A stretch of DNA of 17,017 bases from a virus (IMGVR_UViG_2721755645_000001), one strand, 5' to 3'. Positions 1 through 16,578 are shown, counted from the stretch's first letter. Notes: generated from the sequence alone by a model not told the origin. Numbers and translations: made by a program.

Positions 1-2
1 TT

Positions 3-34
3 GGTGCGCATAATGTCAACGCGTTATGTTGAAA
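3..34. other. dif-like XerC/XerD recombination site (att) at the left prophage boundary
   Basis: GGTGCGCATAA (3..13) is identical to the XerC-binding arm of E. coli dif; a 10-bp central region TGTCAACGCG follows, then TTATGTTGAAA, which resembles the XerD arm TTATGTTAAAT with 2 mismatches. Confidence 0.6.
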
Positions 35-68
35 AGGCCGCTGCGAAAATCGAATCCCGCAGCGGCCT
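35..68 (-). terminator. Rho-independent terminator candidate downstream of the 309-aa cargo gene
   Basis: GC-rich inverted repeat GGCCGCTGCG (36..45) / CGCAGCGGCC (58..67) with a 12-nt loop; on the minus strand it is followed by TTTTC; the gene's stop is at 101. Confidence 0.5.
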
Positions 69-100
69 CTTTAGCATAACGTCATTGTGCGAACCAATAG

Positions 101-1030
101 CTACTTTTTCGTATAACTCTCTTCGCATTTAGCCAAAAACAGCAGATTAGTAGCGGTTAAATGAAGGGTATAACTCGCTAAATACTCAGGAACTTTTGTT
201 ATTTCTGCCCCTTGTCCATGTCCACCTTCTTTATTTCGAATGGTTGGAATACCACTCTCAAGTAGAATTCTTATTGAAGAAAATTGATTCTGGAGGTATT
301 CAGGTACTAAATTATTTGCCAAACAACTGTTAATTAGTTTTTTAGCTGTGTCAGTATCATTAAATTGCCAAGAATGTTTTTTATGTATGGCTTTCATTAG
401 ACTTTCAAAAGATTTGAGGCAATCATTTAAACATTCTTTATATCGCTGATGTCTATAATGCTCATGGGCGGATAAAAACTCATCGTTTGCTCCGTTATAA
501 CTCTTGTTCTTACCAAGAATCTGAAGCGTAGGCTTTACAACATCAGAATGAATGAATTGTGAGTCAACTTTAACCAACTCTCCTGACTCAAATTGATATC
601 CAAGACCTGCTTCTTTAAACCTGATATTAAGTTCTTCAATAGCATCATCAGGACTTTGCTTTACTAACCCTCTGAATTTCCACTCATTTGATCTTATATA
701 CCCGTCTATCAGTTTGAAACATATCTCAATGATATCCAAGCATTTTTCATGATCTCTCTCAGCTAGGAAATAGTCAAAAATTGCCCCGAAATTCGATTCA
801 GGATACTGTTTGAGAGAGAATACACCATATTCCTTACACAGCGTTTTATGAACGAGTCTGTAAAGCTTACTTGCTTCCGTTTCATAGTCACTATCTTCAC
901 CGATAGTATCTCTTACAATATGAACAACCTGAACACGAAATGCATTTGGTATATTCGTGTATTGGTAAACATCAGCTACTTCACCTCTTAATTTTTTTTG
1001 TCTTTTTGAAAATAATTCGAATATAGCCAA
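101..1030 (-). CDS. Hypothetical 309-aa cargo protein; possible HEPN-type C-terminal domain (R265-x5-H271); function unknown
   Basis: Long ORF with GAGGA Shine-Dalgarno 7 nt upstream of the ATG; very AT-rich (about 30-32% GC in hand-sampled stretches) compared with neighbours; C-terminal motif IRNKEGGHG; terminator hairpin downstream. Confidence 0.75.
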   Translation of the reverse strand: MAIFELFSKRQKKLRGEVADVYQYTNIPNAFRVQVVHIVRDTIGEDSDYETEASKLYRLVHKTLCKEYGVFSLKQYPESNFGAIFDYFLAERDHEKCLDIIEICFKLIDGYIRSNEWKFRGLVKQSPDDAIEELNIRFKEAGLGYQFESGELVKVDSQFIHSDVVKPTLQILGKNKSYNGANDEFLSAHEHYRHQRYKECLNDCLKSFESLMKAIHKKHSWQFNDTDTAKKLINSCLANNLVPEYLQNQFSSIRILLESGIPTIRNKEGGHGQGAEITKVPEYLASYTLHLTATNLLFLAKCEESYTKK

Positions 1031-1116
1031 TTTATAATCCTCAAAGATATGCCATTAATATGTCTGAGTTGATGAAAATCACACCGCTTTTACAGTCGTT
1101 TTCCACGGTGGAGTTA

Positions 1117-1536
1117 TCAGTAATATGAGTTTCTTCTGTGCCACCAATAAAGAAGTCCGTATCCAATGATAAGAATTCCGAAAAACATCAACGACATTCC
1201 CCAGCCAGTTCCGTACCACGAAACCATATCATCGAAAACCAACCCACCCATTTCACGTACTCCGGCAGCTTCCTTAAGAATTGGTTTGAATACCGGAATC
1301 AGAAGGGCGATCGCCAGTGGAGCACCCCAGCGAACAAGACCTGTTTCCATTTTGATCCCGAAAAAGATCCCCGCTCCGACAGCAAGCAACCAGACTACCA
1401 GGCCAGGCGCAGTTTCCAGTGCTGTTTGCCATTCAACATCGAAAGTTTTCATTAGCCAGGCAACAACTGCCAGACAGAAAGCAAATACGCCGACGACAAC
1501 CAGTTCAACGCCGCTTGTTTCGTTATTTCTACTCAT
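1117..1536 (-). CDS. Small integral membrane protein, about 4 predicted TM helices, unknown function
   Basis: 139 aa with four hydrophobic stretches (LVVVGVFAFCLAVVAWLM, LVVWLLAVGAGIFFGI, PLAIALLIPVF, LMFFGILIIGYGLLYWW); about 52% GC in sampled stretches; AAGGA upstream of the ATG. Confidence 0.65.
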   Translation of the reverse strand: MSRNNETSGVELVVVGVFAFCLAVVAWLMKTFDVEWQTALETAPGLVVWLLAVGAGIFFGIKMETGLVRWGAPLAIALLIPVFKPILKEAAGVREMGGLVFDDMVSWYGTGWGMSLMFFGILIIGYGLLYWWHRRNSYY

Positions 1537-1578
1537 CCTTTTGATCCTTTTTCACTGTTCAAAATTCGCACAATAAAG

Positions 1579-1607
1579 AACGTGCAGTGTTGGTAATACT
1601 GCACGTT
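1579..1607 (-). terminator. Perfect 10-bp inverted repeat (AACGTGCAGT-N9-ACTGCACGTT); candidate terminator or attenuator after the repressor gene, or an operator
   Basis: Hairpin lies 29 nt downstream of the repressor stop (1636) on the minus strand and is followed on that strand by a T-rich tract (CTTTATTGTG). Confidence 0.4.
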
Positions 1608-1635
1608 TGTCTCATTCCTGAGACTGTTAATCCTT

Positions 1636-2082
1636 TTACTCTTCTCCAGACACCGCTTTTTTCATAAACATTTTAGTACTGTAAGTGTATGAACTTAAGG
1701 CAGAAACTTGCCTTGCGAGTGCCAGAATATCTTGTTTTTCCAGTGTCCTGATGTTCCACACGATGAAATTATGTGCGTTAGTGGTTTCTTCATCAGTATA
1801 TCCATCCGCAGAAGTGATTAGCTTCCGCTCGGTAGCTTCTTCTTTAACATCAAGAGCATAGCCATAAGCTAAGGTGTTTAAGTCTGCACCCGTAATTTTA
1901 GCTATCTGAATGATGTCACTGAATTTAGGTTCAGTTTTGCCGGACGCTATCCTGACCAGCGTACTCACGCTAATGCCAGTCTTCTCGGCCAGTTCTTCAT
2001 AAGTCGAGTGTTCCAGAATTACCTTTTTGATACGTTCTGCTCTCTGTTTGTCCGCCATAACTTCATGCTCATTGTTGCCCAT
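1636..2082 (-). CDS. XRE-family helix-turn-helix transcriptional regulator (phage repressor-like, analogous in position to RstR)
   Basis: 148 aa; N-terminal HTH-like segment YEELAEKTGISVSTLVRIASGKTEPKFSDIIQIAKITGADLNTL; divergently transcribed from the replication gene; GGAG 8 nt upstream of the ATG. Confidence 0.7.
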   Translation of the reverse strand: MGNNEHEVMADKQRAERIKKVILEHSTYEELAEKTGISVSTLVRIASGKTEPKFSDIIQIAKITGADLNTLAYGYALDVKEEATERKLITSADGYTDEETTNAHNFIVWNIRTLEKQDILALARQVSALSSYTYSTKMFMKKAVSGEE

Positions 2083-2253
2083 CTACTTGGCTCCATCTTA
2101 ACAGTGGTTTTTCAATAGTTAGATTTGATGCTCATTTCTGACAATTTAAACATTGCAAATGTATTGACTGTCAGATCTGAGCATATTACATTGTGACCAT
2201 TCAATCTGCTCACAAATGACTATTGACACATATTTTGATGGGTGTGACTACTT
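2083..2253. promoter_or_regulatory. Divergent promoter/operator region between the repressor and replication genes
   Basis: Rightward sigma70-like candidate: -35 TTGACT (2164..2169), 17-bp spacer, -10 TACATT (2187..2192). Overlapping palindromes TGACTGTCA (2165..2173) and TCAGATCTGA (2171..2180) and further TGAC repeats are candidate repressor sites. Confidence 0.45.
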
Positions 2254-3306
2254 ATGATCGACTGGTTTACCGGAATCCTGCCTTGCACACACCGACCGTT
2301 ACCGGCTGGTAGTGTCGTCAGCGTCGATGCTGACGGTGCAGTGGAGTGGGAAACAGTAAAACGGTTGACCGTTCGCGGTTCGCATGAGTCCACAATGAAA
2401 GTAAGGTCTGTTGGATCTGATGGTGAAGGTCGGGCAACACATCTCTACATTGACGGTAATCCATCAAAGTTTTTGCAAGGTCACTCTGTTATCGGTTCCG
2501 ACGATTTGCAAGGGTTGGTGTTAACAGCTTACGCCAGAATATTGGCATTACTGCATATTCCTCATGATCTACCATCCTATCGGCAGGTCATGAAAGGGCA
2601 ATTTAAGATCTCGCGCATCGATATCAATTACATGTATTCATTGTCAACATTAGAAAATGTCCGCGCATGGTTATATGCCGCAGAATTTAAAGCTAAAACT
2701 CGCCACGGTCGCGCCTGTAGTAAAGGTGGCACTGTTTACTTAGGGAAAAACTCCCGTCGTTGGAGCCTGAAATTTTATTCAAAATATGATGAGCATACAT
2801 CTGGCAAAAAAGGGCACCAGATGGCAGACGAATTCGTTAAAGCTGGTTTACTGGACTGGTCAAAAGATAAATTACGCATTGAATTAACATTAAGAACAAC
2901 TGAATTAATTGATTTGAATCTTACGCTTGGTAATAGCTGGAATATTGAGACGCCCAATAAATTATTCTCTGACTATGTAGGGAGAATAGAAATGAATCAA
3001 AATACTATATTAACTGATGAAAAAATAATTAATCTCCCAAGAAAAATACAGTCTACATATTTATTGTGGAAGCAGGGCGCGAACATGAAAGAGATGTTAC
3101 CGAAACCTACATTCTACCGACACCGTAAAGAATTACTTTCTTTCGGAATAGATATTAACTTTTATTGTGAGTCACCGGATTCTAATAACGTTGTTCCGTT
3201 GGTTCGTACTCTTGAAGCCAAACCAGCCAAAATTCCATCATGGGTTTATGAGAAAGGTTTAATTTTCGATTATAACCGTATTTCACATGCCAGTAACTGG
3301 CATTAA
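2254..3306 (+). CDS. Putative rolling-circle replication initiation protein (gene II / RstA-like)
   Basis: 350-aa ORF, first gene of the plus-strand module and divergent from the repressor, as in Ff and CTX-type phages; assignment by synteny and size only, no catalytic motif verified. Confidence 0.55.
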   Translation: MIDWFTGILPCTHRPLPAGSVVSVDADGAVEWETVKRLTVRGSHESTMKVRSVGSDGEGRATHLYIDGNPSKFLQGHSVIGSDDLQGLVLTAYARILALLHIPHDLPSYRQVMKGQFKISRIDINYMYSLSTLENVRAWLYAAEFKAKTRHGRACSKGGTVYLGKNSRRWSLKFYSKYDEHTSGKKGHQMADEFVKAGLLDWSKDKLRIELTLRTTELIDLNLTLGNSWNIETPNKLFSDYVGRIEMNQNTILTDEKIINLPRKIQSTYLLWKQGANMKEMLPKPTFYRHRKELLSFGIDINFYCESPDSNNVVPLVRTLEAKPAKIPSWVYEKGLIFDYNRISHASNWH

Positions 3307-3317
3307 AGGAGAGTGAT

Positions 3318-3635
3318 ATGTCTAATTATGGTCTTTTTGTAAAAGGTAAAATGCTTGGTGCTCGCCAGCGTAATAAGGTCAATGGTCAGGGATACTATAA
3401 TGAAATTGGTGTTGGCTTAGAGATTCCTGATGGTTTTGGCGGCACTAAGCAAGACCAGATTATTATTCGTGTATCTCAGGCTCTTGTTAATGCCGGTGTA
3501 ATGAATCAGGCAAATAATTTTATCGGTAAGTTAGTCCAGATACCTGTATATGTTCGCGTCTGGTCAATGGAGGGGAGGGAAGGAGTAACTTATAACATTT
3601 CATCAGATGGCGGCATTACTGAAATAAAAGGCTGA
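3318..3635 (+). CDS. Putative ssDNA-binding protein (gene V / RstB-like)
   Basis: 105-aa ORF directly after the replication gene; strong AAGGAGAG Shine-Dalgarno; position matches gV in Ff synteny. Confidence 0.45.
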   Translation: MSNYGLFVKGKMLGARQRNKVNGQGYYNEIGVGLEIPDGFGGTKQDQIIIRVSQALVNAGVMNQANNFIGKLVQIPVYVRVWSMEGREGVTYNISSDGGITEIKG

Positions 3636-3637
3636 TT

Positions 3638-3889
3638 ATGGATACATCAGGTTTCGATATTCAGTTTGATAATCATATTCCTGAAAATGGTTACCGTATT
3701 GAAGGTTATTTATGTAATGCGAACAATGCAAAAGAATGTCAGGCAATAATGGTACGTTCTGAACCATTTCATCAAATTGATTATTCTGCAATGGGAAATT
3801 ACTGGACATTAGGTTTTGGCTCTGTCCTGCTGCTCTGGCTTTTTTCTGTAGGTGTGGGACAGGTAATAAAGATGGTTCGTACTGCTTGA
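3638..3889 (+). CDS. Small protein with a C-terminal hydrophobic segment; possible minor coat or morphogenesis protein
   Basis: 83 aa, start 2 nt after the upstream stop; C-terminal segment WTLGFGSVLLLWLFSVGVGQVI; position corresponds to gVII/gIX in Ff order. Confidence 0.4.
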   Translation: MDTSGFDIQFDNHIPENGYRIEGYLCNANNAKECQAIMVRSEPFHQIDYSAMGNYWTLGFGSVLLLWLFSVGVGQVIKMVRTA

Positions 3890-3923
3890 ATGCGAACCTT
3901 TAAAATGTAATGGAGATAGAGTT

Positions 3924-4157
3924 ATGTTTAAAAAAATCGTTAGTTTTCTGGCTGTACCTGCATTAATGGCTGTTTCTGGCGCGACTTTCGCTGCAGAAGG
4001 AGCGGCATCAAGTGGTGTTGATTTATCGCCGCTGACGAACAGCATTGATTTCAGTACAGTTCTGGTTGCGATTATGGCCGTTGCTGCTTCACTGGTAACA
4101 CTTTATGCCGGTGTCGCTGGCGTTCGCTGGGTATTGCGTACCGTTAAATCCGCATAA
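3924..4157 (+). CDS. Major coat protein (gene VIII-like)
   Basis: 77 aa; signal peptide MFKKIVSFLAVPALMAVSGATFA with AXA-type cleavage, acidic mature N-terminus, hydrophobic core and basic C-terminus (RWVLRTVKSA); GGAGA Shine-Dalgarno; strong terminator follows. Confidence 0.75.
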   Translation: MFKKIVSFLAVPALMAVSGATFAAEGAASSGVDLSPLTNSIDFSTVLVAIMAVAASLVTLYAGVAGVRWVLRTVKSA

Positions 4158-4170
4158 ATTCATTATTCAT

Positions 4171-4195
4171 GGGCGATGCAATATCGCCCGTTTTA
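4171..4195 (+). terminator. Rho-independent terminator after the coat gene
   Basis: Stem GGGCGAT (4171..4177) / ATCGCCC (4183..4189) with a 5-nt loop, followed by GTTTTA; matches the position of the gVIII terminator in Ff phages. Confidence 0.7.
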
Positions 4196-4221
4196 CTTGA
4201 GGTTATTATGGAGATTGAATT

Positions 4222-5934
4222 ATGGAAATTGGGTTCCCTTTTATGGGGGATCGTCTCAGCTTATGTCGTTATTCTTGGGCTAAGAGGCTGACGGTTTATT
4301 CCTTTATTTTTTCCTTTCTCTGGGTTTCCTTTCCCCGATATTCATATTCATTTGTACCAGCAATTGCAGCAGTGGCTGCGCGGGCTGTTATTCCTAAAGT
4401 CGTTGGCCGGGTGCTTGTTCGTCGCTTTGCTGCCAATGATGCGATTTATACGGCATCACAGCTTACAGCAACCCGTGTTTTTGTTGGCCGCGCTGCGGCT
4501 AATGCTGCCGAATACTTGCCTGCTGCCTCATCATACAAAATGAGCGGTGTTGCAACGTGGGCGGGTATTGCTGCTGCTGTATCATCTTTTGTTCCGTCTT
4601 CTTTGAGTTCATCTGACGGCTCGGTAATGGTAATGACTAACGGTAAAAAGATTTCCGATAATTTATATGAAGTAACGTACAGTGGTCAAAGTGGTGAAAG
4701 TAAGACGATAACCGTTAATTTTGAACCACAGGAATTAAGTCCGGTAATCCTTCATGTTAGTCGTAATAATGTGGATGCGGGTTCTCCAGTTGTAGGTGTT
4801 GAAACAGGATATTCCACGCCAGATAATGCACTTTATTATTATCAGGATTCGAAAGAGCTAATTTATTACTATGGTGATAATCCAACTGAAATTGCCAGAA
4901 ATTATCTTAATGACTATAACTCGCGTACTTATACTGAAACACTAACGAATTTTGAACGCACTGTGACGAATAAAGTTGTCAACAGTAATGGAGATGTCTC
5001 CTTTACTGAACAGAATTATAAGTTTACTTATCCTTCCTCATTTTATGAAATTCCTGAGATTACACACTTGTATAGCAACCCGGCCGCATCTTCATTTCCC
5101 GCAGGTATTCCCATGTATGAAAATGTAGCAGGGCTTCCCATGTATTACAGCGTTGCTTATTTAACAGCAGGAAAGCAATATCAGTATCACAACACGCCTT
5201 GTAAAACGACTAATCAGTCAAATGGTGGATATTCGACGATTTGCGCCGTTCCTGAAAAAGAGGATTACACCACAAAAGATATTGATGAAAAGAGTGAGCT
5301 TACTATCTGGACCAATACCAAATATAAAGCCATGACGGAAGTACTGGAGGCCGGAAATATTGAGTCCATGATTGATTATCTGGAGTATCTTGATAGTGTT
5401 AGTGTATCGCCAGCACTTCTTGCCGACATGATTAACGAGCTGTGGTCTGAAGCTGCCGTTAATGCCGATTATAACGGCTTACCGTTTAAAGAGGTTTCAC
5501 CGGCTGAAGTAACTTCTGCGATGTCGGAACTTAGGCTATCTCCAACGTTATTAGATATGCTTTCACCTGTATCTGACAGTGCAGGGGCTGACGTCAATAT
5601 TGATATTACCATTAATAACAACTCAGGATCTGACACTGGAAATAATGGCAATATAGATTTGGGAGAAGATCCCGGTGTAAAAGAGCCTGAGCTTGAAGAA
5701 ACGCCAACGGCAAGAGATATTTTAACGCCAATTATTAACTTGTTGCCTTTTACAAACGAATTTAACATCGGCTCTCGTTCAGCATCCTGCCCCGTTGTTG
5801 AATTCAGCGTGTTTAATCACCAGTACAGAATTGACTCCCATTGTCCGTTAATTGAGCAGAACAGAAGCGCCGTAGAAACCATATTTCTGATTATATGGGG
5901 ATTTGTTGCGCTCCGTATTATTCTTAGTGCCTAA
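4222..5934 (+). CDS. Minor coat / adsorption protein (gene III-like)
   Basis: 570 aa; signal-like hydrophobic N-terminal segment, Gly/Ser/Asn-rich linker (NNNSGSDTGNNGN) and C-terminal membrane anchor (IFLIIWGFVALRIILSA); the true start may be the internal ATG at 4243. Confidence 0.65.
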   Translation: MEIGFPFMGDRLSLCRYSWAKRLTVYSFIFSFLWVSFPRYSYSFVPAIAAVAARAVIPKVVGRVLVRRFAANDAIYTASQLTATRVFVGRAAANAAEYLPAASSYKMSGVATWAGIAAAVSSFVPSSLSSSDGSVMVMTNGKKISDNLYEVTYSGQSGESKTITVNFEPQELSPVILHVSRNNVDAGSPVVGVETGYSTPDNALYYYQDSKELIYYYGDNPTEIARNYLNDYNSRTYTETLTNFERTVTNKVVNSNGDVSFTEQNYKFTYPSSFYEIPEITHLYSNPAASSFPAGIPMYENVAGLPMYYSVAYLTAGKQYQYHNTPCKTTNQSNGGYSTICAVPEKEDYTTKDIDEKSELTIWTNTKYKAMTEVLEAGNIESMIDYLEYLDSVSVSPALLADMINELWSEAAVNADYNGLPFKEVSPAEVTSAMSELRLSPTLLDMLSPVSDSAGADVNIDITINNNSGSDTGNNGNIDLGEDPGVKEPELEETPTARDILTPIINLLPFTNEFNIGSRSASCPVVEFSVFNHQYRIDSHCPLIEQNRSAVETIFLIIWGFVALRIILSA

Positions 5935-5946
5935 AGGAGTGCAACT

Positions 5947-6147
5947 ATGTTTGGGATTCTGATTAGTGCATTAAATACTTTGTTAGGTTTTGTATTCCGG
6001 TCATTGATTATTAAATTCGTCGTATTCTTTGCGCTGTATTTTGTAGTCCAGGGCTTCGTTGATATACGGGGAAAAAATAATGAAAAAGATTTTACTCGCA
6101 TTAACGCTACTATTTTCTTCATGTGCTTTCGCAGGGTCAGAGCTTGA
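5947..6147 (+). pseudogene. Truncated gene VI-like ORF; 3' end removed by the 1183-bp deletion in copy 1
   Basis: First 38 codons identical to the 95-aa ORF at 13681..13968, then the frame diverges after the deletion junction (6062|6063) and runs into the gIV region. Confidence 0.7.
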
Positions 6148-7324
6148 ATTAAATAAAGTCAAGCTACCGGAGGCTATTTCTCTTATTTACAGTGAGGTGC
6201 TTAAAGTCCCGTATATGCTAGATCCACAGCTTGTTAATGATGAACGAATGATTACATTCAGGTTAACATCTGATATTGATGAACGGGAATTTGTAACCCG
6301 TTATCTTGGCAATATGAACATTCGAATATGGACGAAAAAGGGTGTTGATTTTATCGCGCCCTATACGCCGAAAGAGCCGGTTAAGCCACGTTATACATGG
6401 ACTTATACGCCTCAGTACCGTTCTGTTGCCTACCTGTCTGATATTCTTGGCGGCTACGTTTCAGGCTCCTTCAATAACAGTGGAGCCGTGATTTCTGACG
6501 ATTCGCTAAAAGGTTCATCAGGGGCAAGCAACTACATCAATCGAACCGGTGATATTCTGGTTTATTATGGTACGAAAGAGGATATCGCCATCCTGAAAAC
6601 ACTGGTCACTTCGCTGGATACGATGAGTGATGAAGTGGTTGTTTCTGGTTATGTTTTTGAGGTTCAGACCTCGCAGTCTGACGGCTCCGGCATTCTTTTA
6701 GCGGCTAAAATTCTGTCTGATAAATTCAATATTTCAGTTGGTGCTGCCGGACTGGATAATTTTATCAATATTCGAACCGGCTCCATTGATGCCATTTTCA
6801 ATCTGCTGAAAACCGACAGTCGTTTTACTGTTGTCAGTGCGCCACGACTGCGGGTAAAAAATAATGCCTCAGCGTCTTTTTCAGTCGGCTCTGATGTGCC
6901 AGTACTGGGCAGTGTTACGGTGAATAACAATACGACAACGCAATCCGTTGAATATCGTTCCAGCGGTGTTTTGTTTAACGTGACGCCATCAATCAAAAGT
7001 CGGACAATGGATCTCAAGATTCAGCAGCAGCTTTCCAACTTTGTGACCACTGAAACCGGCGTCAATAACTCGCCAACCCTTATCAAGCGTGATGTAACAA
7101 CCGAAGTCAGCCTTGCAGATGGTGATATTATTTTACTTGGTGGCCTTGCTGAACAGAAAGACAGTAAGGCCAGTTCCGGCTGGAGCTTCTTCGGTTCCCG
7201 TACCAGTGAAAGCAACAAGACTGATATTATGGTGATGCTTCAGGTCAGAAAGGTTGACCGGAGCAGGGCGACGCCCCGCAGCGCCGCGAGGAGCGGTGAA
7301 CTGTTCCGGGACAACCTGAACTGA
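6080..7324 (+). CDS. Secretin (gene IV-like outer-membrane export channel), copy 1
   Basis: 414 aa from the ATG at 6080; signal peptide MKKILLALTLLFSSCAFA; C-terminal secretin-like motif DGDIILLGGL. The ORF-track start at 6059 is an in-frame ATG created by the deletion junction. Confidence 0.8.
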   Translation: MKKILLALTLLFSSCAFAGSELELNKVKLPEAISLIYSEVLKVPYMLDPQLVNDERMITFRLTSDIDEREFVTRYLGNMNIRIWTKKGVDFIAPYTPKEPVKPRYTWTYTPQYRSVAYLSDILGGYVSGSFNNSGAVISDDSLKGSSGASNYINRTGDILVYYGTKEDIAILKTLVTSLDTMSDEVVVSGYVFEVQTSQSDGSGILLAAKILSDKFNISVGAAGLDNFINIRTGSIDAIFNLLKTDSRFTVVSAPRLRVKNNASASFSVGSDVPVLGSVTVNNNTTTQSVEYRSSGVLFNVTPSIKSRTMDLKIQQQLSNFVTTETGVNNSPTLIKRDVTTEVSLADGDIILLGGLAEQKDSKASSGWSFFGSRTSESNKTDIMVMLQVRKVDRSRATPRSAARSGELFRDNLN

Positions 7325-7736
7325 TTGTATGGATTTTTATTATGGCGTTAACTTTTATGGGGTATGAACAGTACGACATCTTTTTGTTGCTGTCCGGGGT
7401 TGGCCAAGCCGTACAGTTTCCATTTTCAGCGTTATGGCTGATTCGGCGCGGCAGCATTCATCGGGCCTTATCATGGAAAAATTCATGACACATCAGGAGC
7501 ATGGTGATTGGTGATGGCACTGAAGAAGTGGTGTTTGATTCTCGTGTATCAGGTACAGATTTACCAACTAACTGGATGAACAGGCCTGATTGGTGAGGTC
7601 AGGCCGTTCACTTACTGCTGACAGACATTTGATTCTGATTCGTTTGGAGAAACGGATGATTTTGAATCACTGTCGATAGTAGCCAGTTGACGGCCAGTGT
7701 CAACGATTCCCGCCAGATTCTGCCATCCTTACCATT

Positions 7737-7768
7737 GGTGCGCATAATGTCAACGCGTTATGTTGAAA
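7737..7768. other. dif-like XerC/XerD site at the junction between the tandem prophage copies
   Basis: Same 32-bp sequence as 3..34, lying exactly at the copy 1 / copy 2 boundary. Confidence 0.6.
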
Positions 7769-7802
7769 AGGCCGCTGCGAAAATCGAATCCCGCAGCGGC
7801 CT
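7769..7802 (-). terminator. Rho-independent terminator candidate (copy 2 equivalent)
   Basis: Same hairpin as 35..68. Confidence 0.5.
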
Positions 7803-7834
7803 CTTTAGCATAACGTCATTGTGCGAACCAATAG

Positions 7835-8764
7835 CTACTTTTTCGTATAACTCTCTTCGCATTTAGCCAAAAACAGCAGATTAGTAGCGGTTAAATGAAG
7901 GGTATAACTCGCTAAATACTCAGGAACTTTTGTTATTTCTGCCCCTTGTCCATGTCCACCTTCTTTATTTCGAATGGTTGGAATACCACTCTCAAGTAGA
8001 ATTCTTATTGAAGAAAATTGATTCTGGAGGTATTCAGGTACTAAATTATTTGCCAAACAACTGTTAATTAGTTTTTTAGCTGTGTCAGTATCATTAAATT
8101 GCCAAGAATGTTTTTTATGTATGGCTTTCATTAGACTTTCAAAAGATTTGAGGCAATCATTTAAACATTCTTTATATCGCTGATGTCTATAATGCTCATG
8201 GGCGGATAAAAACTCATCGTTTGCTCCGTTATAACTCTTGTTCTTACCAAGAATCTGAAGCGTAGGCTTTACAACATCAGAATGAATGAATTGTGAGTCA
8301 ACTTTAACCAACTCTCCTGACTCAAATTGATATCCAAGACCTGCTTCTTTAAACCTGATATTAAGTTCTTCAATAGCATCATCAGGACTTTGCTTTACTA
8401 ACCCTCTGAATTTCCACTCATTTGATCTTATATACCCGTCTATCAGTTTGAAACATATCTCAATGATATCCAAGCATTTTTCATGATCTCTCTCAGCTAG
8501 GAAATAGTCAAAAATTGCCCCGAAATTCGATTCAGGATACTGTTTGAGAGAGAATACACCATATTCCTTACACAGCGTTTTATGAACGAGTCTGTAAAGC
8601 TTACTTGCTTCCGTTTCATAGTCACTATCTTCACCGATAGTATCTCTTACAATATGAACAACCTGAACACGAAATGCATTTGGTATATTCGTGTATTGGT
8701 AAACATCAGCTACTTCACCTCTTAATTTTTTTTGTCTTTTTGAAAATAATTCGAATATAGCCAA
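7835..8764 (-). CDS. Hypothetical 309-aa cargo protein (copy 2), possible HEPN-type C-terminus
   Basis: Identical translation to 101..1030. Confidence 0.75.
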   Translation of the reverse strand: MAIFELFSKRQKKLRGEVADVYQYTNIPNAFRVQVVHIVRDTIGEDSDYETEASKLYRLVHKTLCKEYGVFSLKQYPESNFGAIFDYFLAERDHEKCLDIIEICFKLIDGYIRSNEWKFRGLVKQSPDDAIEELNIRFKEAGLGYQFESGELVKVDSQFIHSDVVKPTLQILGKNKSYNGANDEFLSAHEHYRHQRYKECLNDCLKSFESLMKAIHKKHSWQFNDTDTAKKLINSCLANNLVPEYLQNQFSSIRILLESGIPTIRNKEGGHGQGAEITKVPEYLASYTLHLTATNLLFLAKCEESYTKK

Positions 8765-8850
8765 TTTATAATCCTCAAAGATATGCCATTAATATGTCTG
8801 AGTTGATGAAAATCACACCGCTTTTACAGTCGTTTTCCACGGTGGAGTTA

Positions 8851-9270
8851 TCAGTAATATGAGTTTCTTCTGTGCCACCAATAAAGAAGTCCGTATCCAA
8901 TGATAAGAATTCCGAAAAACATCAACGACATTCCCCAGCCAGTTCCGTACCACGAAACCATATCATCGAAAACCAACCCACCCATTTCACGTACTCCGGC
9001 AGCTTCCTTAAGAATTGGTTTGAATACCGGAATCAGAAGGGCGATCGCCAGTGGAGCACCCCAGCGAACAAGACCTGTTTCCATTTTGATCCCGAAAAAG
9101 ATCCCCGCTCCGACAGCAAGCAACCAGACTACCAGGCCAGGCGCAGTTTCCAGTGCTGTTTGCCATTCAACATCGAAAGTTTTCATTAGCCAGGCAACAA
9201 CTGCCAGACAGAAAGCAAATACGCCGACGACAACCAGTTCAACGCCGCTTGTTTCGTTATTTCTACTCAT
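8851..9270 (-). CDS. Small integral membrane protein (copy 2)
   Basis: Identical translation to 1117..1536. Confidence 0.65.
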   Translation of the reverse strand: MSRNNETSGVELVVVGVFAFCLAVVAWLMKTFDVEWQTALETAPGLVVWLLAVGAGIFFGIKMETGLVRWGAPLAIALLIPVFKPILKEAAGVREMGGLVFDDMVSWYGTGWGMSLMFFGILIIGYGLLYWWHRRNSYY

Positions 9271-9312
9271 CCTTTTGATCCTTTTTCACTGTTCAAAATT
9301 CGCACAATAAAG

Positions 9313-9341
9313 AACGTGCAGTGTTGGTAATACTGCACGTT
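9313..9341 (-). terminator. Inverted repeat, candidate terminator or operator (copy 2)
   Basis: Same sequence as 1579..1607. Confidence 0.4.
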
Positions 9342-9369
9342 TGTCTCATTCCTGAGACTGTTAATCCTT

Positions 9370-9816
9370 TTACTCTTCTCCAGACACCGCTTTTTTCATA
9401 AACATTTTAGTACTGTAAGTGTATGAACTTAAGGCAGAAACTTGCCTTGCGAGTGCCAGAATATCTTGTTTTTCCAGTGTCCTGATGTTCCACACGATGA
9501 AATTATGTGCGTTAGTGGTTTCTTCATCAGTATATCCATCCGCAGAAGTGATTAGCTTCCGCTCGGTAGCTTCTTCTTTAACATCAAGAGCATAGCCATA
9601 AGCTAAGGTGTTTAAGTCTGCACCCGTAATTTTAGCTATCTGAATGATGTCACTGAATTTAGGTTCAGTTTTGCCGGACGCTATCCTGACCAGCGTACTC
9701 ACGCTAATGCCAGTCTTCTCGGCCAGTTCTTCATAAGTCGAGTGTTCCAGAATTACCTTTTTGATACGTTCTGCTCTCTGTTTGTCCGCCATAACTTCAT
9801 GCTCATTGTTGCCCAT
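9370..9816 (-). CDS. XRE-family HTH transcriptional regulator (copy 2)
   Basis: Identical translation to 1636..2082. Confidence 0.7.
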   Translation of the reverse strand: MGNNEHEVMADKQRAERIKKVILEHSTYEELAEKTGISVSTLVRIASGKTEPKFSDIIQIAKITGADLNTLAYGYALDVKEEATERKLITSADGYTDEETTNAHNFIVWNIRTLEKQDILALARQVSALSSYTYSTKMFMKKAVSGEE

Positions 9817-9987
9817 CTACTTGGCTCCATCTTAACAGTGGTTTTTCAATAGTTAGATTTGATGCTCATTTCTGACAATTTAAACATTGCAAATGTATTG
9901 ACTGTCAGATCTGAGCATATTACATTGTGACCATTCAATCTGCTCACAAATGACTATTGACACATATTTTGATGGGTGTGACTACTT
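9817..9987. promoter_or_regulatory. Divergent promoter/operator region (copy 2)
   Basis: Same sequence as 2083..2253. Confidence 0.45.
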
Positions 9988-11040
9988 ATGATCGACTGGT
10001 TTACCGGAATCCTGCCTTGCACACACCGACCGTTACCGGCTGGTAGTGTCGTCAGCGTCGATGCTGACGGTGCAGTGGAGTGGGAAACAGTAAAACGGTT
10101 GACCGTTCGCGGTTCGCATGAGTCCACAATGAAAGTAAGGTCTGTTGGATCTGATGGTGAAGGTCGGGCAACACATCTCTACATTGACGGTAATCCATCA
10201 AAGTTTTTGCAAGGTCACTCTGTTATCGGTTCCGACGATTTGCAAGGGTTGGTGTTAACAGCTTACGCCAGAATATTGGCATTACTGCATATTCCTCATG
10301 ATCTACCATCCTATCGGCAGGTCATGAAAGGGCAATTTAAGATCTCGCGCATCGATATCAATTACATGTATTCATTGTCAACATTAGAAAATGTCCGCGC
10401 ATGGTTATATGCCGCAGAATTTAAAGCTAAAACTCGCCACGGTCGCGCCTGTAGTAAAGGTGGCACTGTTTACTTAGGGAAAAACTCCCGTCGTTGGAGC
10501 CTGAAATTTTATTCAAAATATGATGAGCATACATCTGGCAAAAAAGGGCACCAGATGGCAGACGAATTCGTTAAAGCTGGTTTACTGGACTGGTCAAAAG
10601 ATAAATTACGCATTGAATTAACATTAAGAACAACTGAATTAATTGATTTGAATCTTACGCTTGGTAATAGCTGGAATATTGAGACGCCCAATAAATTATT
10701 CTCTGACTATGTAGGGAGAATAGAAATGAATCAAAATACTATATTAACTGATGAAAAAATAATTAATCTCCCAAGAAAAATACAGTCTACATATTTATTG
10801 TGGAAGCAGGGCGCGAACATGAAAGAGATGTTACCGAAACCTACATTCTACCGACACCGTAAAGAATTACTTTCTTTCGGAATAGATATTAACTTTTATT
10901 GTGAGTCACCGGATTCTAATAACGTTGTTCCGTTGGTTCGTACTCTTGAAGCCAAACCAGCCAAAATTCCATCATGGGTTTATGAGAAAGGTTTAATTTT
11001 CGATTATAACCGTATTTCACATGCCAGTAACTGGCATTAA
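9988..11040 (+). CDS. Putative replication initiation protein (copy 2)
   Basis: Identical translation to 2254..3306. Confidence 0.55.
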   Translation: MIDWFTGILPCTHRPLPAGSVVSVDADGAVEWETVKRLTVRGSHESTMKVRSVGSDGEGRATHLYIDGNPSKFLQGHSVIGSDDLQGLVLTAYARILALLHIPHDLPSYRQVMKGQFKISRIDINYMYSLSTLENVRAWLYAAEFKAKTRHGRACSKGGTVYLGKNSRRWSLKFYSKYDEHTSGKKGHQMADEFVKAGLLDWSKDKLRIELTLRTTELIDLNLTLGNSWNIETPNKLFSDYVGRIEMNQNTILTDEKIINLPRKIQSTYLLWKQGANMKEMLPKPTFYRHRKELLSFGIDINFYCESPDSNNVVPLVRTLEAKPAKIPSWVYEKGLIFDYNRISHASNWH

Positions 11041-11051
11041 AGGAGAGTGAT

Positions 11052-11369
11052 ATGTCTAATTATGGTCTTTTTGTAAAAGGTAAAATGCTTGGTGCTCGCC
11101 AGCGTAATAAGGTCAATGGTCAGGGATACTATAATGAAATTGGTGTTGGCTTAGAGATTCCTGATGGTTTTGGCGGCACTAAGCAAGACCAGATTATTAT
11201 TCGTGTATCTCAGGCTCTTGTTAATGCCGGTGTAATGAATCAGGCAAATAATTTTATCGGTAAGTTAGTCCAGATACCTGTATATGTTCGCGTCTGGTCA
11301 ATGGAGGGGAGGGAAGGAGTAACTTATAACATTTCATCAGATGGCGGCATTACTGAAATAAAAGGCTGA
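11052..11369 (+). CDS. Putative ssDNA-binding protein (copy 2)
   Basis: Identical translation to 3318..3635. Confidence 0.45.
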   Translation: MSNYGLFVKGKMLGARQRNKVNGQGYYNEIGVGLEIPDGFGGTKQDQIIIRVSQALVNAGVMNQANNFIGKLVQIPVYVRVWSMEGREGVTYNISSDGGITEIKG

Positions 11370-11371
11370 TT

Positions 11372-11623
11372 ATGGATACATCAGGTTTCGATATTCAGTT
11401 TGATAATCATATTCCTGAAAATGGTTACCGTATTGAAGGTTATTTATGTAATGCGAACAATGCAAAAGAATGTCAGGCAATAATGGTACGTTCTGAACCA
11501 TTTCATCAAATTGATTATTCTGCAATGGGAAATTACTGGACATTAGGTTTTGGCTCTGTCCTGCTGCTCTGGCTTTTTTCTGTAGGTGTGGGACAGGTAA
11601 TAAAGATGGTTCGTACTGCTTGA
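11372..11623 (+). CDS. Small hydrophobic protein, possible minor coat protein (copy 2)
   Basis: Identical translation to 3638..3889. Confidence 0.4.
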   Translation: MDTSGFDIQFDNHIPENGYRIEGYLCNANNAKECQAIMVRSEPFHQIDYSAMGNYWTLGFGSVLLLWLFSVGVGQVIKMVRTA

Positions 11624-11657
11624 ATGCGAACCTTTAAAATGTAATGGAGATAGAGTT

Positions 11658-11891
11658 ATGTTTAAAAAAATCGTTAGTTTTCTGGCTGTACCTGCATTAA
11701 TGGCTGTTTCTGGCGCGACTTTCGCTGCAGAAGGAGCGGCATCAAGTGGTGTTGATTTATCGCCGCTGACGAACAGCATTGATTTCAGTACAGTTCTGGT
11801 TGCGATTATGGCCGTTGCTGCTTCACTGGTAACACTTTATGCCGGTGTCGCTGGCGTTCGCTGGGTATTGCGTACCGTTAAATCCGCATAA
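11658..11891 (+). CDS. Major coat protein (copy 2)
   Basis: Identical translation to 3924..4157. Confidence 0.75.
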   Translation: MFKKIVSFLAVPALMAVSGATFAAEGAASSGVDLSPLTNSIDFSTVLVAIMAVAASLVTLYAGVAGVRWVLRTVKSA

Positions 11892-11904
11892 ATTCATTAT
11901 TCAT

Positions 11905-11929
11905 GGGCGATGCAATATCGCCCGTTTTA
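11905..11929 (+). terminator. Rho-independent terminator after the coat gene (copy 2)
   Basis: Same sequence as 4171..4195. Confidence 0.7.
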
Positions 11930-11955
11930 CTTGAGGTTATTATGGAGATTGAATT

Positions 11956-13668
11956 ATGGAAATTGGGTTCCCTTTTATGGGGGATCGTCTCAGCTTATGT
12001 CGTTATTCTTGGGCTAAGAGGCTGACGGTTTATTCCTTTATTTTTTCCTTTCTCTGGGTTTCCTTTCCCCGATATTCATATTCATTTGTACCAGCAATTG
12101 CAGCAGTGGCTGCGCGGGCTGTTATTCCTAAAGTCGTTGGCCGGGTGCTTGTTCGTCGCTTTGCTGCCAATGATGCGATTTATACGGCATCACAGCTTAC
12201 AGCAACCCGTGTTTTTGTTGGCCGCGCTGCGGCTAATGCTGCCGAATACTTGCCTGCTGCCTCATCATACAAAATGAGCGGTGTTGCAACGTGGGCGGGT
12301 ATTGCTGCTGCTGTATCATCTTTTGTTCCGTCTTCTTTGAGTTCATCTGACGGCTCGGTAATGGTAATGACTAACGGTAAAAAGATTTCCGATAATTTAT
12401 ATGAAGTAACGTACAGTGGTCAAAGTGGTGAAAGTAAGACGATAACCGTTAATTTTGAACCACAGGAATTAAGTCCGGTAATCCTTCATGTTAGTCGTAA
12501 TAATGTGGATGCGGGTTCTCCAGTTGTAGGTGTTGAAACAGGATATTCCACGCCAGATAATGCACTTTATTATTATCAGGATTCGAAAGAGCTAATTTAT
12601 TACTATGGTGATAATCCAACTGAAATTGCCAGAAATTATCTTAATGACTATAACTCGCGTACTTATACTGAAACACTAACGAATTTTGAACGCACTGTGA
12701 CGAATAAAGTTGTCAACAGTAATGGAGATGTCTCCTTTACTGAACAGAATTATAAGTTTACTTATCCTTCCTCATTTTATGAAATTCCTGAGATTACACA
12801 CTTGTATAGCAACCCGGCCGCATCTTCATTTCCCGCAGGTATTCCCATGTATGAAAATGTAGCAGGGCTTCCCATGTATTACAGCGTTGCTTATTTAACA
12901 GCAGGAAAGCAATATCAGTATCACAACACGCCTTGTAAAACGACTAATCAGTCAAATGGTGGATATTCGACGATTTGCGCCGTTCCTGAAAAAGAGGATT
13001 ACACCACAAAAGATATTGATGAAAAGAGTGAGCTTACTATCTGGACCAATACCAAATATAAAGCCATGACGGAAGTACTGGAGGCCGGAAATATTGAGTC
13101 CATGATTGATTATCTGGAGTATCTTGATAGTGTTAGTGTATCGCCAGCACTTCTTGCCGACATGATTAACGAGCTGTGGTCTGAAGCTGCCGTTAATGCC
13201 GATTATAACGGCTTACCGTTTAAAGAGGTTTCACCGGCTGAAGTAACTTCTGCGATGTCGGAACTTAGGCTATCTCCAACGTTATTAGATATGCTTTCAC
13301 CTGTATCTGACAGTGCAGGGGCTGACGTCAATATTGATATTACCATTAATAACAACTCAGGATCTGACACTGGAAATAATGGCAATATAGATTTGGGAGA
13401 AGATCCCGGTGTAAAAGAGCCTGAGCTTGAAGAAACGCCAACGGCAAGAGATATTTTAACGCCAATTATTAACTTGTTGCCTTTTACAAACGAATTTAAC
13501 ATCGGCTCTCGTTCAGCATCCTGCCCCGTTGTTGAATTCAGCGTGTTTAATCACCAGTACAGAATTGACTCCCATTGTCCGTTAATTGAGCAGAACAGAA
13601 GCGCCGTAGAAACCATATTTCTGATTATATGGGGATTTGTTGCGCTCCGTATTATTCTTAGTGCCTAA
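11956..13668 (+). CDS. Minor coat / adsorption protein (copy 2)
   Basis: Identical translation to 4222..5934. Confidence 0.65.
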   Translation: MEIGFPFMGDRLSLCRYSWAKRLTVYSFIFSFLWVSFPRYSYSFVPAIAAVAARAVIPKVVGRVLVRRFAANDAIYTASQLTATRVFVGRAAANAAEYLPAASSYKMSGVATWAGIAAAVSSFVPSSLSSSDGSVMVMTNGKKISDNLYEVTYSGQSGESKTITVNFEPQELSPVILHVSRNNVDAGSPVVGVETGYSTPDNALYYYQDSKELIYYYGDNPTEIARNYLNDYNSRTYTETLTNFERTVTNKVVNSNGDVSFTEQNYKFTYPSSFYEIPEITHLYSNPAASSFPAGIPMYENVAGLPMYYSVAYLTAGKQYQYHNTPCKTTNQSNGGYSTICAVPEKEDYTTKDIDEKSELTIWTNTKYKAMTEVLEAGNIESMIDYLEYLDSVSVSPALLADMINELWSEAAVNADYNGLPFKEVSPAEVTSAMSELRLSPTLLDMLSPVSDSAGADVNIDITINNNSGSDTGNNGNIDLGEDPGVKEPELEETPTARDILTPIINLLPFTNEFNIGSRSASCPVVEFSVFNHQYRIDSHCPLIEQNRSAVETIFLIIWGFVALRIILSA

Positions 13669-13680
13669 AGGAGTGCAACT

Positions 13681-13968
13681 ATGTTTGGGATTCTGATTAG
13701 TGCATTAAATACTTTGTTAGGTTTTGTATTCCGGTCATTGATTATTAAATTCGTCGTATTCTTTGCGCTGTATTTTGTAGTCCAGGGCTTCGTTGAAATC
13801 CTTGTTGAGTTACTGCCAGATTCAAGCAATCTCTCATCGCTGTTTGCCAATTTATCAGACGGATTCTGGTACTTCATTAACCTGAGTAAATTACCACAGG
13901 GGATTAGTATGATTATCTCCGCAATGGCTACTCGTTTTATTATTCGACGTATTCCTGTTATAGGGTGA
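13681..13968 (+). CDS. Minor coat protein (gene VI-like)
   Basis: 95-aa hydrophobic protein with AAGGAG Shine-Dalgarno, lying between the gIII-like and gI-like genes as in Ff phages. Confidence 0.6.
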   Translation: MFGILISALNTLLGFVFRSLIIKFVVFFALYFVVQGFVEILVELLPDSSNLSSLFANLSDGFWYFINLSKLPQGISMIISAMATRFIIRRIPVIG

Positions 13969-13971
13969 GTT

Positions 13972-14997
13972 ATGGCTATTTCTGCATATATTGGCATACC
14001 CGGCTCAGGAAAAAGTTATGAAGCCGTTTGCAATGTCATTATTCCGGCATTTACCAGCGGCCGGAGAGTTGTGACGAACATTTATGGTTTACAAAAAGAT
14101 AAAATCACCGAACGTTATCCTGATGCAACGGGAGAAATTATTGTTGTGGATAATGATGATGTGCTTAAAGCAGATTTCTTTCCTTTTAAAGGTGGGGAAG
14201 GGAGCTTTTGCCAGTTTGGTGATTTAATTGTTATTGATGAAGCATGGCGAATCTTCGGTAGCGATAAGGATATGACGGCTGAGAAGAAATCATTTATTGC
14301 TGAACATCGTCATTTTACGCACCCTGAAACGGGTATTAGCTGTGATTTGGTTATTGTAAATCAGTCACTTTCTAATATTGCTCGCTTTCTGAAAGACAAA
14401 ATAGAAACAACTTACCGGATGCGCAAGCTGAAAGCGTTGGGCCTGAATAATCATTACTGCATTGACGTATATTCAGGCCACAAAATCTATAAAAGCAACC
14501 TCGTCACCAGTTATCGCAATAAATATAACCCTGATATTTTTGAACTTTACAAAAGTTATGAAGGAAATAACGGTAATGAAAAGCAGACAGATAAACGCCA
14601 GAGCATCTGGAATTCTGGCAAAGTCAGGTTCTTTCTTGTGCTTTTTCCATTGATGTTTATCGGGTCAGGCTGGCTGATTTACTCATTTTTCAGCACGTTT
14701 GGCCGAAGCGATCCCTCGCCAGATTTGACTACAACAGATGTACGTGATGCGGCCATGTTTCGTTCTTCCGCTGCTACTCCAGCACCAGATACTCCCTCAG
14801 AACCAGCTGAACCGCCACTTTCAACCGAGTGGCGTATATCAGGGAGAATGACCAGTGAAGGCAGGGCGTTTGTGATTCTTGTTAATGGTGCCGGTGTTTT
14901 GCGTGCCGTTCCTGCATCCAGTTTTAATTACAAAGGGATGTTGATGAGCGGAATTATTGATGGTGAGCGTGTGACGCTTTATACGGGGAAAAAATAA
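13972..14997 (+). CDS. Assembly ATPase (gene I / Zot-like)
   Basis: 341 aa; Walker A GIPGSGKSY at the N-terminus, Walker B-like LIVIDEAW, C-terminal TM segment (FFLVLFPLMFIGSGWLIYSFF); stop overlaps the gIV start (TAATG). Present only in copy 2. Confidence 0.8.
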   Translation: MAISAYIGIPGSGKSYEAVCNVIIPAFTSGRRVVTNIYGLQKDKITERYPDATGEIIVVDNDDVLKADFFPFKGGEGSFCQFGDLIVIDEAWRIFGSDKDMTAEKKSFIAEHRHFTHPETGISCDLVIVNQSLSNIARFLKDKIETTYRMRKLKALGLNNHYCIDVYSGHKIYKSNLVTSYRNKYNPDIFELYKSYEGNNGNEKQTDKRQSIWNSGKVRFFLVLFPLMFIGSGWLIYSFFSTFGRSDPSPDLTTTDVRDAAMFRSSAATPAPDTPSEPAEPPLSTEWRISGRMTSEGRAFVILVNGAGVLRAVPASSFNYKGMLMSGIIDGERVTLYTGKK

Positions 14998-16241: not shown

Positions 16242-16329
16242 TTGTATGGATTTTTATTATGGCGTTAACTTTTATGGGGTATGAACAGTACGACATCTTC
16301 TAGGTATTCAGTTACTTAGAGGATTTATT

Positions 16330-16578
16330 ATGTCTGTAAAAAATAAGGCGCGTGACCGACTTCCCGGTGGCCGCCTTAAGTCTTATCGTCGTGTAGGTTC
16401 ACATTTTGCCAGTTGTGCCAGATGGTTTGATAAATCGCCGTCCTGGTATCGCAATATGATGATGACCAGGCCTGAGCGCCGTGAAGTCAGAAGGCTTCTC
16501 AATCAGGTAATGCGTGGTCATGATGCTGACGGCATTGCTTTTCCGGTCAGTCATCGTCCGTTTGTTTATTGGTGGTGA
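16330..16578 (+). CDS. Hypothetical small basic protein (82 aa, Arg-rich), copy 2 only
   Basis: ORF with GAGGA Shine-Dalgarno 6 nt upstream; lies inside a 373-bp segment (about 16300..16672) that is absent from copy 1; no recognisable motif. Confidence 0.5.
   Translation: MSVKNKARDRLPGGRLKSYRRVGSHFASCARWFDKSPSWYRNMMMTRPERREVRRLLNQVMRGHDADGIAFPVSHRPFVYWW

Follow-up and report, generated by a model that had tools for sequence, protein, structure and literature searches.

Exchangeable cargo in a hypervariable slot of a dif-integrating Escherichia coli inovirus: a putative AbiJ-type abortive-infection effector at a base-composition step

The viral sequence IMGVR_UViG_2721755645_000001, the whole 17,017-bp stretch of which is called the window here, consists of two tandem copies of one inovirus unit of the CUS-1/YpfPhi type. 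In each copy, a gene for a 309-amino-acid (aa) protein differs in G+C content (GC) from the adjacent gene for a 139-aa membrane protein, so that the gene and the step both occur twice. A first-pass annotation read this step as a sign that the 309-aa gene was acquired separately from an AT-rich source and inserted between the phage backbone and the attachment site. The locus therefore raises three questions: whether the gene is foreign to the phage, what it encodes, and whether its composition tells where it came from. We consider it likely that the gene is an exchangeable "moron" in a hypervariable slot and that it encodes an abortive-infection effector of the AbiJ type.

Comparison with related prophages defines the slot. 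Homology between the window and prophage L019 runs through the attL/attP block to position 7832; it begins again precisely with the membrane-gene stop codon (8849). Between these two points, where the window has 1,016 bp, L019 carries 1,206 bp with the gene for a 363-aa protein that is unrelated. The attP block is kept across prophages L011, L018, and L019 up to 2 nucleotides (nt) before the cargo stop codon, and it is present beside every cargo type because its role is essential. At least eight unrelated cargo sets, all of them AT-rich, have been found in the slot with identical junctions (Table 1). The slot is thus base-precise and hypervariable, and its content is replaced wholesale in related prophages. 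The identical repressor (WP_000527682.1) adjoins all cargo types in E. coli. In E. coli and Klebsiella, the membrane gene is found alongside every cargo type; YpfPhi of Yersinia pestis lacks it.

To estimate how often the slot holds this gene, we surveyed 5,426 complete E. coli genomes. The membrane-gene anchor was found in 127 of them, and the module of repressor, G2P, and G5P at 80% coverage or more in 91. The 309-aa gene is not universal at this position, being present in 18 of the 127 anchor-bearing genomes, although the clonal bias of complete RefSeq genomes counts against taking this as more than a rough frequency.

The gene has also moved between phages. A second, diverged dif-inovirus backbone, which encodes a 60-aa regulator, a GP8-type coat protein, a DUF5455 protein, a 364-aa Zot, and a 421-aa secretin, carries it with 0 to 2 differences in 930 nt. 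The G2P of this backbone is 80% identical to that of the window phage, its structural genes have no nucleotide similarity to those of the window, and it likewise forms tandem arrays. Its pair of cargo and membrane gene is almost identical to that of the window (L001, L003, L004, and L008 to L010, at approximately 9224..10930), evidence that phage types exchange the attP-proximal module in mosaic fashion. The transfer was recent, because the cargo has hardly changed between backbones with such divergent G2P genes. With so few differences, the ratio of nonsynonymous to synonymous substitution rates (dN/dS) between cargo copies is uninformative. A label of "Ypf/CUS-like" considered for the second backbone was wrong; it is the window phage that belongs to the CUS-1/YpfPhi type, the second backbone being that of a separate, diverged dif-inovirus. 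The homology break, the alternative cargos (at least eight), the patchy occurrence, and the second backbone bear out separate acquisition between phage backbone and attachment site, and the 309-aa gene is very probably exchangeable cargo.

The second question is what this cargo encodes. NCBIfam model NF046078 (STM4504/CBY_0614) scores 456.1 bits over residues 23-300 (cutoff 150, E = 4.1e-137), and the RefSeq product name of the protein is already STM4504/CBY_0614 family. The N-terminal part matches Pfam AbiJ_NTD4 (PF18863; residues 5-168, 94.9 bits, gathering score 34, 8.6e-27). The C-terminal part, claimed in current Pfam by DUF7014 (residues 170-305, 1.1e-77), has the four-helix up-and-down arrangement of the HEPN fold. 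An Rx4-6H motif, R265-N-K-E-G-G-H271, is present at the start of the last helix, and among 138 homologues (38% to 58% identity) R265 is conserved in 98%, N266 in 97%, H271 in 99%, and G272 in 98%. CBY_0614 is the prototype by which the fusion of AbiJ-NTD4 to an AbiJ-type HEPN domain was defined, and a sensor or antitoxin function was proposed for the N-terminus and a suicidal ribonuclease (RNase) function for the C-terminus (Anantharaman et al. 2013, PMC3710099). PHROGs places the 309-aa protein in a family of unknown function. Judging from domain architecture and motif, we lean toward an abortive-infection HEPN RNase.

Several observations weigh against this assignment and the wider explanation. 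The Pfam models Abi_C (PF14355.11; 12.8 bits against 24, E = 0.14, residues 259-300) and HEPN (E = 0.15) match the protein only below threshold; a precomputed annotation with the newer PF14355.13 lists Abi_C for it (E <= 1e-5). PADLOC matches no AbiJ model, only the candidate model PDC-S32, and this match is partial (E = 4.5e-10, 37.7 bits, residues 6-223, profile positions 9-214 of 285). The catalytic loop (residues 264-271) has a predicted local distance difference test score (pLDDT) below 50, and for a separate model of the N-terminal domain (pLDDT 85) no convincing structural relative was found. A published phenotype or experiment for the STM4504/CBY_0614 family was not found in the literature searched, and lactococcal AbiJ has no known mechanism, only escape mutations in proteins that anneal single-stranded DNA (PMC13064643). 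A consensus scan detected no sigma-70-like promoter just upstream of the cargo. Finally, only two of the at least eight cargo types are recognizable, the AbiJ-like HEPN protein and the pair of DUF6953 and a DpnII-MboI-type restriction endonuclease (REase), the rest having no family or weak matches, and the label "defence hotspot" rests on these two.

The proposed explanation begins in the lysogen. The 309-aa gene runs in the same direction as the repressor and membrane genes and against the replication and structural genes. Because it is co-oriented with the repressor, it is probably expressed in the lysogen; we assume, plausibly, that cargo, repressor, and membrane gene are co-transcribed there. 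A low level of protein would be auto-inhibited by its N-terminal AbiJ_NTD4 domain until an infecting lytic phage supplied a cue that this domain could sense. The released HEPN domain, with its Rx5H active site, would then cleave RNA, translation would halt, and the infection would be aborted, blocking the spread of the lytic phage. The clonal host population would be protected, and a non-lytic, chronically secreted inovirus depends on that population.

A different role for a HEPN protein would be to serve the phage directly, as an addiction or stabilization toxin or as a weapon against competing dif-integrating elements or inoviruses (superinfection exclusion). This is unlikely: no antitoxin gene adjoins the 309-aa gene, the membrane gene is kept with every cargo type and so is not a dedicated partner, and the family is also found on plasmids and on large non-inovirus viral contigs, which fits general defence better. 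For the membrane protein itself, which has no match in Pfam or NCBIfam, superinfection exclusion is one guess. Plus-strand open reading frames (ORFs) of 105 and 136 aa that overlap the membrane gene are probably spurious.

Defence by abortive infection remains the favored role, and it leaves the question of how cargos are swapped. The most likely route would be homologous recombination between relatives that reside in one cell or co-infect it, taking place through the flanks (the attP block at one end, the membrane and repressor genes at the other). This route fits because the membrane-gene allele is linked to the cargo: an allele at least 99% identical occurs in only approximately 15 genomes, close to the 18 cargo carriers, and identity elsewhere is 95% to 97%. 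The exchange could also be site-specific, by Xer-mediated shuffling of cassettes in the style of a pdif module or an integron. Such shuffling would account for a left junction that is base-precise and directly abuts XerC-arm-like sequence, and on IncF plasmids an attP-like block (89% to 92% identical) lies beside two different cargos with a second dif-like site approximately 2.7 kb away. However, a search for a pdif-like module found Xer-like sites in the phage only on the attP side of the slot and none at its right boundary, and linkage of the membrane-gene allele to the cargo is what exchange via flanking homology would produce. Nor is the attP hairpin an integron attC site; in our own reading of the sequence, its GTT/AAC ends are opposite to the R''/R' arrangement. 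Xer-mediated shuffling is accordingly rated as quite improbable.

As single-stranded DNA (the copy at 7730..7840), the attP block folds at -33.5 kcal/mol (z = -8.3); the structure is a forked hairpin in which a bulge separates the XerC-like arm from the XerD-like arm. The palindrome looks like the folded attP of the CTXphi type, as proposed for YpfPhi. On the minus strand, its GC stem is followed by a T-run, which probably also terminates transcription of the cargo.

The plasmids that share the attP-like block hold modules of their own. On ColV/IncF plasmids, the block lies 3' of a gene for a 313-aa homologue of the cargo protein (60% aa identity); another IncF plasmid has an unrelated three-gene cargo, with ECs_2282, in that position. 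Both cargos adjoin an ISNCY-family transposase gene, 85.5% identical between the plasmids, beyond which stands the second site, a good dif-like sequence (TGTGCGCACAA-TCTATC-TTATGTTAAAT). The attP-like block, cargo, ISNCY gene, and second dif-like site together form an Xer-bounded module of 2.8 to 3.0 kb. A 1,536-bp query comprising attP block, cargo, and membrane gene had 478 matches on E. coli plasmids, and among the matches listed it was mostly the cargo homologue that was matched. Most simply, by analogy with what is reported for Vibrio, these modules may be degraded Xer-integrated relics that kept their cargo. It is less credible, and on balance rather unlikely, that filamentous phages and conjugative Enterobacterales plasmids draw on a shared pool of Xer-exploiting cassettes, a small family of integrative mobile elements exploiting Xer (IMEX), that shuttles defence genes between them; if they did, the predicted AbiJ-NTD4/HEPN effector would be among its commonest payloads.

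The third question is what the composition step itself can tell. Over its full length, the 309-aa gene has 34.7% GC and 26.8% GC at third codon positions (GC3), and the membrane gene, co-oriented with it as had been noted (both are on the minus strand), has 47.4% GC and 45.0% GC3. The other phage genes, pooled, have 42.7% GC and 38.4% GC3; the whole unit is at 41.4% and the rest of the phage at approximately 42%. The difference is significant by chi-square, both between the 309-aa gene and the membrane gene (p = 1.3e-5) and between the 309-aa gene and the rest of the unit (p = 1.4e-5). The sharp step described in the first-pass annotation is thus real and persists in a full-length calculation, with a gap of about 12.7 to 12.9 points rather than about 21. 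The 30% to 32% GC given there for the 309-aa gene came from its lowest 60-nt stretches (such stretches range from 28% to 40%), and the 52% to 53% given for the membrane gene holds for positions 1261..1380 only.

The gap was decomposed by computing the GC expected from each protein sequence under one common table, the codon usage of the core phage. The amino-acid sequences alone predict 38.7% for the cargo and 46.3% for the membrane gene, which accounts for 7.6 of the 12.9 points, or approximately 60%, and reflects the contrast between a soluble protein rich in K, N, and I and a membrane protein rich in G, A, and W. The synonymous-codon choice of the cargo contributes -4.0 points (z = -4.2), and the residual of the membrane gene (+1.3 points) is not significant. 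No 930-bp stretch of the unit has a lower GC than the 309-aa gene, though the margin is small: a core window of the same length starting at 10595 (3' end of G2P, G5P, and orf83) has 35.7% GC. Composition alone is weak evidence of foreign origin, because most of the gap is amino-acid composition and this core window is nearly as AT-rich.

These figures lend something to the notion that the step merely reflects protein composition in an AT-rich, heterogeneous phage and that the 309-aa gene is an ordinary backbone gene. Core genes are as AT-biased as the cargo (orf83, GC3 25% and residual -4.9; G5P, GC3 32%), and the whole prophage (41%) lies approximately 8 points below its E. coli flanks (47% to 49%). 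As a full explanation, this is very unlikely and is refuted by presence and absence: unrelated genes replace the 309-aa gene at base-precise junctions, most slot-bearing genomes lack it (it is in 18 of 127), it has moved between diverged backbones, and its codon-choice residual is significant. It holds only as a caveat on the foreignness signal. The step belongs to the slot rather than to the 309-aa gene alone, because every slot cargo has 31% to 37% GC beside a membrane gene that always has 47% to 48%.

In all 12 unrelated contexts compared, which were large viral contigs and a ColV-type plasmid, genes of the STM4504/CBY_0614 family also have lower GC than the sequence on either side (mean -6.5 points, range -2.4 to -13.1). 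Low GC is a general feature of the mobile cargo pool and not the fingerprint of one donor, and the AT-rich source named in the first-pass annotation cannot be inferred, because the family in all 12 contexts and all slot cargos share the bias. A GC step between neighboring genes can be mostly amino-acid composition; what established separate acquisition was the presence/absence comparison.

That the 309-aa gene is a decaying, non-functional passenger is scarcely credible, even with its TTG start codon and with prophage copy A itself defective, given that the ORF is intact in 9 of 9 compared copies and identical in both window copies, the catalytic motif and approximately 30 other residues are near-invariant across the family, a good Shine-Dalgarno sequence (GAGGA) lies 7 nt upstream of the start, and the exact protein is indexed in 2,087 blocks of an assembly collection.

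The other occupants of the slot are candidate new defence or conflict genes. The 363-aa and 369-aa cargo proteins are related to each other and have hydrophobic segments; several small slot ORFs have no family match. In total, the at least eight compact, AT-rich cargo sets amount to a short list of candidate anti-phage systems, most of them without annotation.

The unit that carries the slot encodes, by Pfam scan, G2P, G5P, coat protein B, a pIII-like 570-aa protein, a DUF2523 (pVI-like) protein, Zot, and a secretin, and these inovirus core genes stand in canonical order. G2P marks the start of the replication and structural genes, which are transcribed divergently from the cargo side. Exact-protein look-ups and megablast show that the sequence is 100% identical to the chromosome of E. 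coli NGF-1 directly beside hipBA, which lies to the left of the prophage. An intact E. coli dif (28/28) stands immediately to the right of the prophage in L011, L014, L015, and L019; with up to three mismatches allowed, no dif is found within the window, the intact one lying just past its right end. The element is a CUS-1/YpfPhi-type, Xer-dependent, dif-integrating inovirus in a tandem array, because its G2P and repressor genes are 99.8% identical at the nucleotide level to those of YpfPhi, UTI89 (of the O18:K1:H7 lineage in which CUS-1 was described) has the same backbone proteins, and dif lies beyond the right end. It agrees with published descriptions, which give inverted XerC/XerD sites (of the CTXphi type in YpfPhi), reconstitution of dif at the 3' end, and two to four tandem copies (PMC4266046). 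Among deposited phage genomes, megablast with the entire unit found no match, and the phage is represented only as prophages in bacterial records.

The two copies in the window are not equivalent. Positions 1..6062 and 7735..13796 are 100% identical, 6063..7382 corresponds to 14980..16299, and 7382..7734 corresponds to 16672..17017. Copy A (1..7734) is defective, lacking 1,183 bp (13797..14979) of copy B (7735..17017) that encode the C-terminus of pVI, the whole of Zot, and the beginning of the secretin; this loss created a 421-aa fusion ORF at 6059..7324. Copy A also lacks 372 bp (16300..16671, orf82), and its deletion junctions have no clear microhomology. The 7-bp repeat unit TGGTGAT is another difference between the copies. 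In L015 and L020 (both at approximately 9340), an array copy starts directly at the repressor gene, the equivalent of window positions 7751..9326 being gone. This partial copy, without the right hairpin half, cargo, and membrane gene, has an "empty slot" or is RS1-like, and it sometimes carries a 140-aa repressor variant.

The pIII-like ORF (4222..5934, plus strand) encodes 570 aa from its first ATG; RefSeq and several assemblies give 520 aa from a downstream start, and the length among related prophages is 491 to 570 aa. In one E. coli genome, an insertion sequence with a DDE_Tnp_1/DUF772 transposase lies inside the pIII-like gene of one prophage copy (L016 3165..4145, L017 13633..14613). The 309-aa gene is not the puvA of CUS-1, which encodes a pIII-like virion protein.

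Table 1 Features of the window, alternative cargos of the slot, and plasmid modules
Feature	Location	Strand	Basis or remark
309-aa cargo gene, STM4504/CBY_0614 family, AbiJ_NTD4 + HEPN	101..1030	-	Pfam, NCBIfam NF046078, RefSeq WP_000963948.1
309-aa cargo gene, second copy	7835..8764	-	100% identical
AbiJ_NTD4 domain, residues 1-168	527..1030	-	presumed sensor/regulatory
HEPN-fold domain, C-terminal, residues 170-305	116..523	-	
Rx5H HEPN catalytic motif RNKEGGH, R265...H271	218..238	-	translation
attL/attP block, copy A	1..98	.	~95-bp imperfect palindrome, left slot boundary
attP-type palindrome at junction of tandem copies, copy B	7735..7832	.	
dif-like site GGTGCGCATAA-TGTCAACGCG-TTATGTTGAAA	3..34	+	XerC arm perfect, XerD arm with two mismatches, spacer of 10 nt
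Inverted second dif-like site GGTTCGCACAA-TGACG-TTATGCTAAAG	69..95	-	sequence scan
Cargo slot, copy A (309-aa gene + 86-bp upstream spacer)	99..1114	-	homology breakpoints
Cargo slot, copy B	7833..8848	-	homology breakpoints vs related prophages
Membrane protein, 139 aa, four predicted transmembrane segments, phrog_4174	1117..1536	-	conserved right-hand slot anchor, 47-48% GC
Membrane gene, second copy	8851..9270	-	
Helix-turn-helix repressor, 148 aa, RstR-like	1636..2082	-	Pfam HTH_3 1.6e-9; co-oriented with cargo
Repressor gene, second copy	9370..9816	-	
Replication initiator G2P	2254..3306	+	Pfam Phage_CRI 1.1e-73; 99% identical to YpfPhi of Y. pestis
Cargo, 123 + 155 aa	strain MS8345		
Cargo, DUF6953 + 264-aa DpnII-MboI-type REase	E. 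coli D8, L025 1603..2674		PADLOC Aga_Helical-REase 1.3e-34
Cargo, 369 aa	GU2018_CL13 and UTI89 (i.e., CUS-1)		
Cargo, ECs_2282 CxxC zinc-ribbon protein + 159 aa	L018 (17114..17868), L033		
Cargo, 87 + 135 aa	YpfPhi of Y. pestis		without membrane gene
Cargo, 240 + 89 aa	Klebsiella spallanzanii		
Cargo, 363 aa	L019		unrelated to 309-aa protein
Alternative cargo loci	L025 1603..2674; L018 17114..17868; L019 7659..8750; L027 1608..2717; L024 1599..2483; L028 4594..5286; L030 1102..2114		
Plasmid modules	L022 4940..7860 (pMB7536_1); L023 2940..6073 (pHS13-1-IncF)		

Among known proteins, members of the STM4504/CBY_0614 family have the same two-domain architecture and Rx4-6H motif as the 309-aa protein, with no structural difference; the family is a computational prediction (PMC3710099), and its occurrence as inovirus cargo was not pointed out in the literature searched. 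AbiJ of Lactococcus lactis (Abi-859) is a probable parallel; it combines a C-terminal Abi_C-type HEPN domain with a variable N-terminal domain in a single-gene abortive-infection system. It differs in having another N-terminal domain, in being plasmid-borne, and in its Gram-positive host, and the similarity is marginal (the Abi_C match mentioned above). HepS of the Salmonella prophage Gifsy-1 offers an experimentally proven analogue, a single HEPN protein that both senses and acts (PMC13043305). HepS is shorter than the 309-aa protein, lacks AbiJ_NTD4, and is carried by a tailed prophage, and it is for HepS only that a trigger (the siphovirus tail tip) and a target (tRNA anticodon loops) are known (PMC13043305).

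Within the phage group itself, the attL-adjacent orf1/orf1a of CUS-1 and YPO2271/YPO2272 of YpfPhi have been published as mutually unrelated replacements, described as lacking homologues and as functionless. They belong to phages with G2P and repressor 99% to 100% identical to those of the window and occupy the same position as the 309-aa gene. The window carries a third cargo type, which, unlike those ORFs, has a recognizable predicted function. The differences between CUS-1 and YpfPhi, the hypervariable loci of Vibrio, and the curated protein family were thus already known; what is added here is the functional assignment of one cargo, the base-precise slot, the catalog of at least eight alternatives, and the decomposition of the GC step. 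One occupant among the attL-adjacent "unknown" ORFs now has a predicted function; the phage group is associated with pandemic lineages of Y. pestis and with virulent lineages of E. coli K1.

P2-like phages and P4-like satellites have defence hotspots, many cargos of which are said to have been validated experimentally; these hotspots were reportedly described by Rousset et al. in 2022 (cited in PMC11630473). They resemble the slot in their conserved flanks and interchangeable AT-rich cargo, theirs being defence genes expressed from the lysogen; they differ in virus realm and integration mechanism.

Closest in kind is the hotspot (pHVR) of Vibrio filamentous prophages, described in 2024-2025 as defence-enriched (PMC11630473, PMC12715192). 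There too, a small dif-integrating inovirus has one hypervariable locus; it spans 1 to 2 kb, is enriched in abortive-infection, toxin-antitoxin, and nuclease genes, trades cargo with other phages as well as with bacteria, and persists in degraded relics (PMC11630473, PMC12715192). In Vibrio CTX-I phages, the pHVR is found at the opposite end of the prophage, flanked by zot and xafT, whereas the slot described here extends from attP to the membrane gene on the repressor side and belongs to Enterobacterales phages; no XafT-like gene was detected, and orf82, checked as a possible XafT, has no Pfam or PHROG match. The slot works like pHVR but is not the CTX-I locus; these Enterobacterales inoviruses possess a hypervariable, base-precise cargo slot that resembles the one lately reported from Vibrio.

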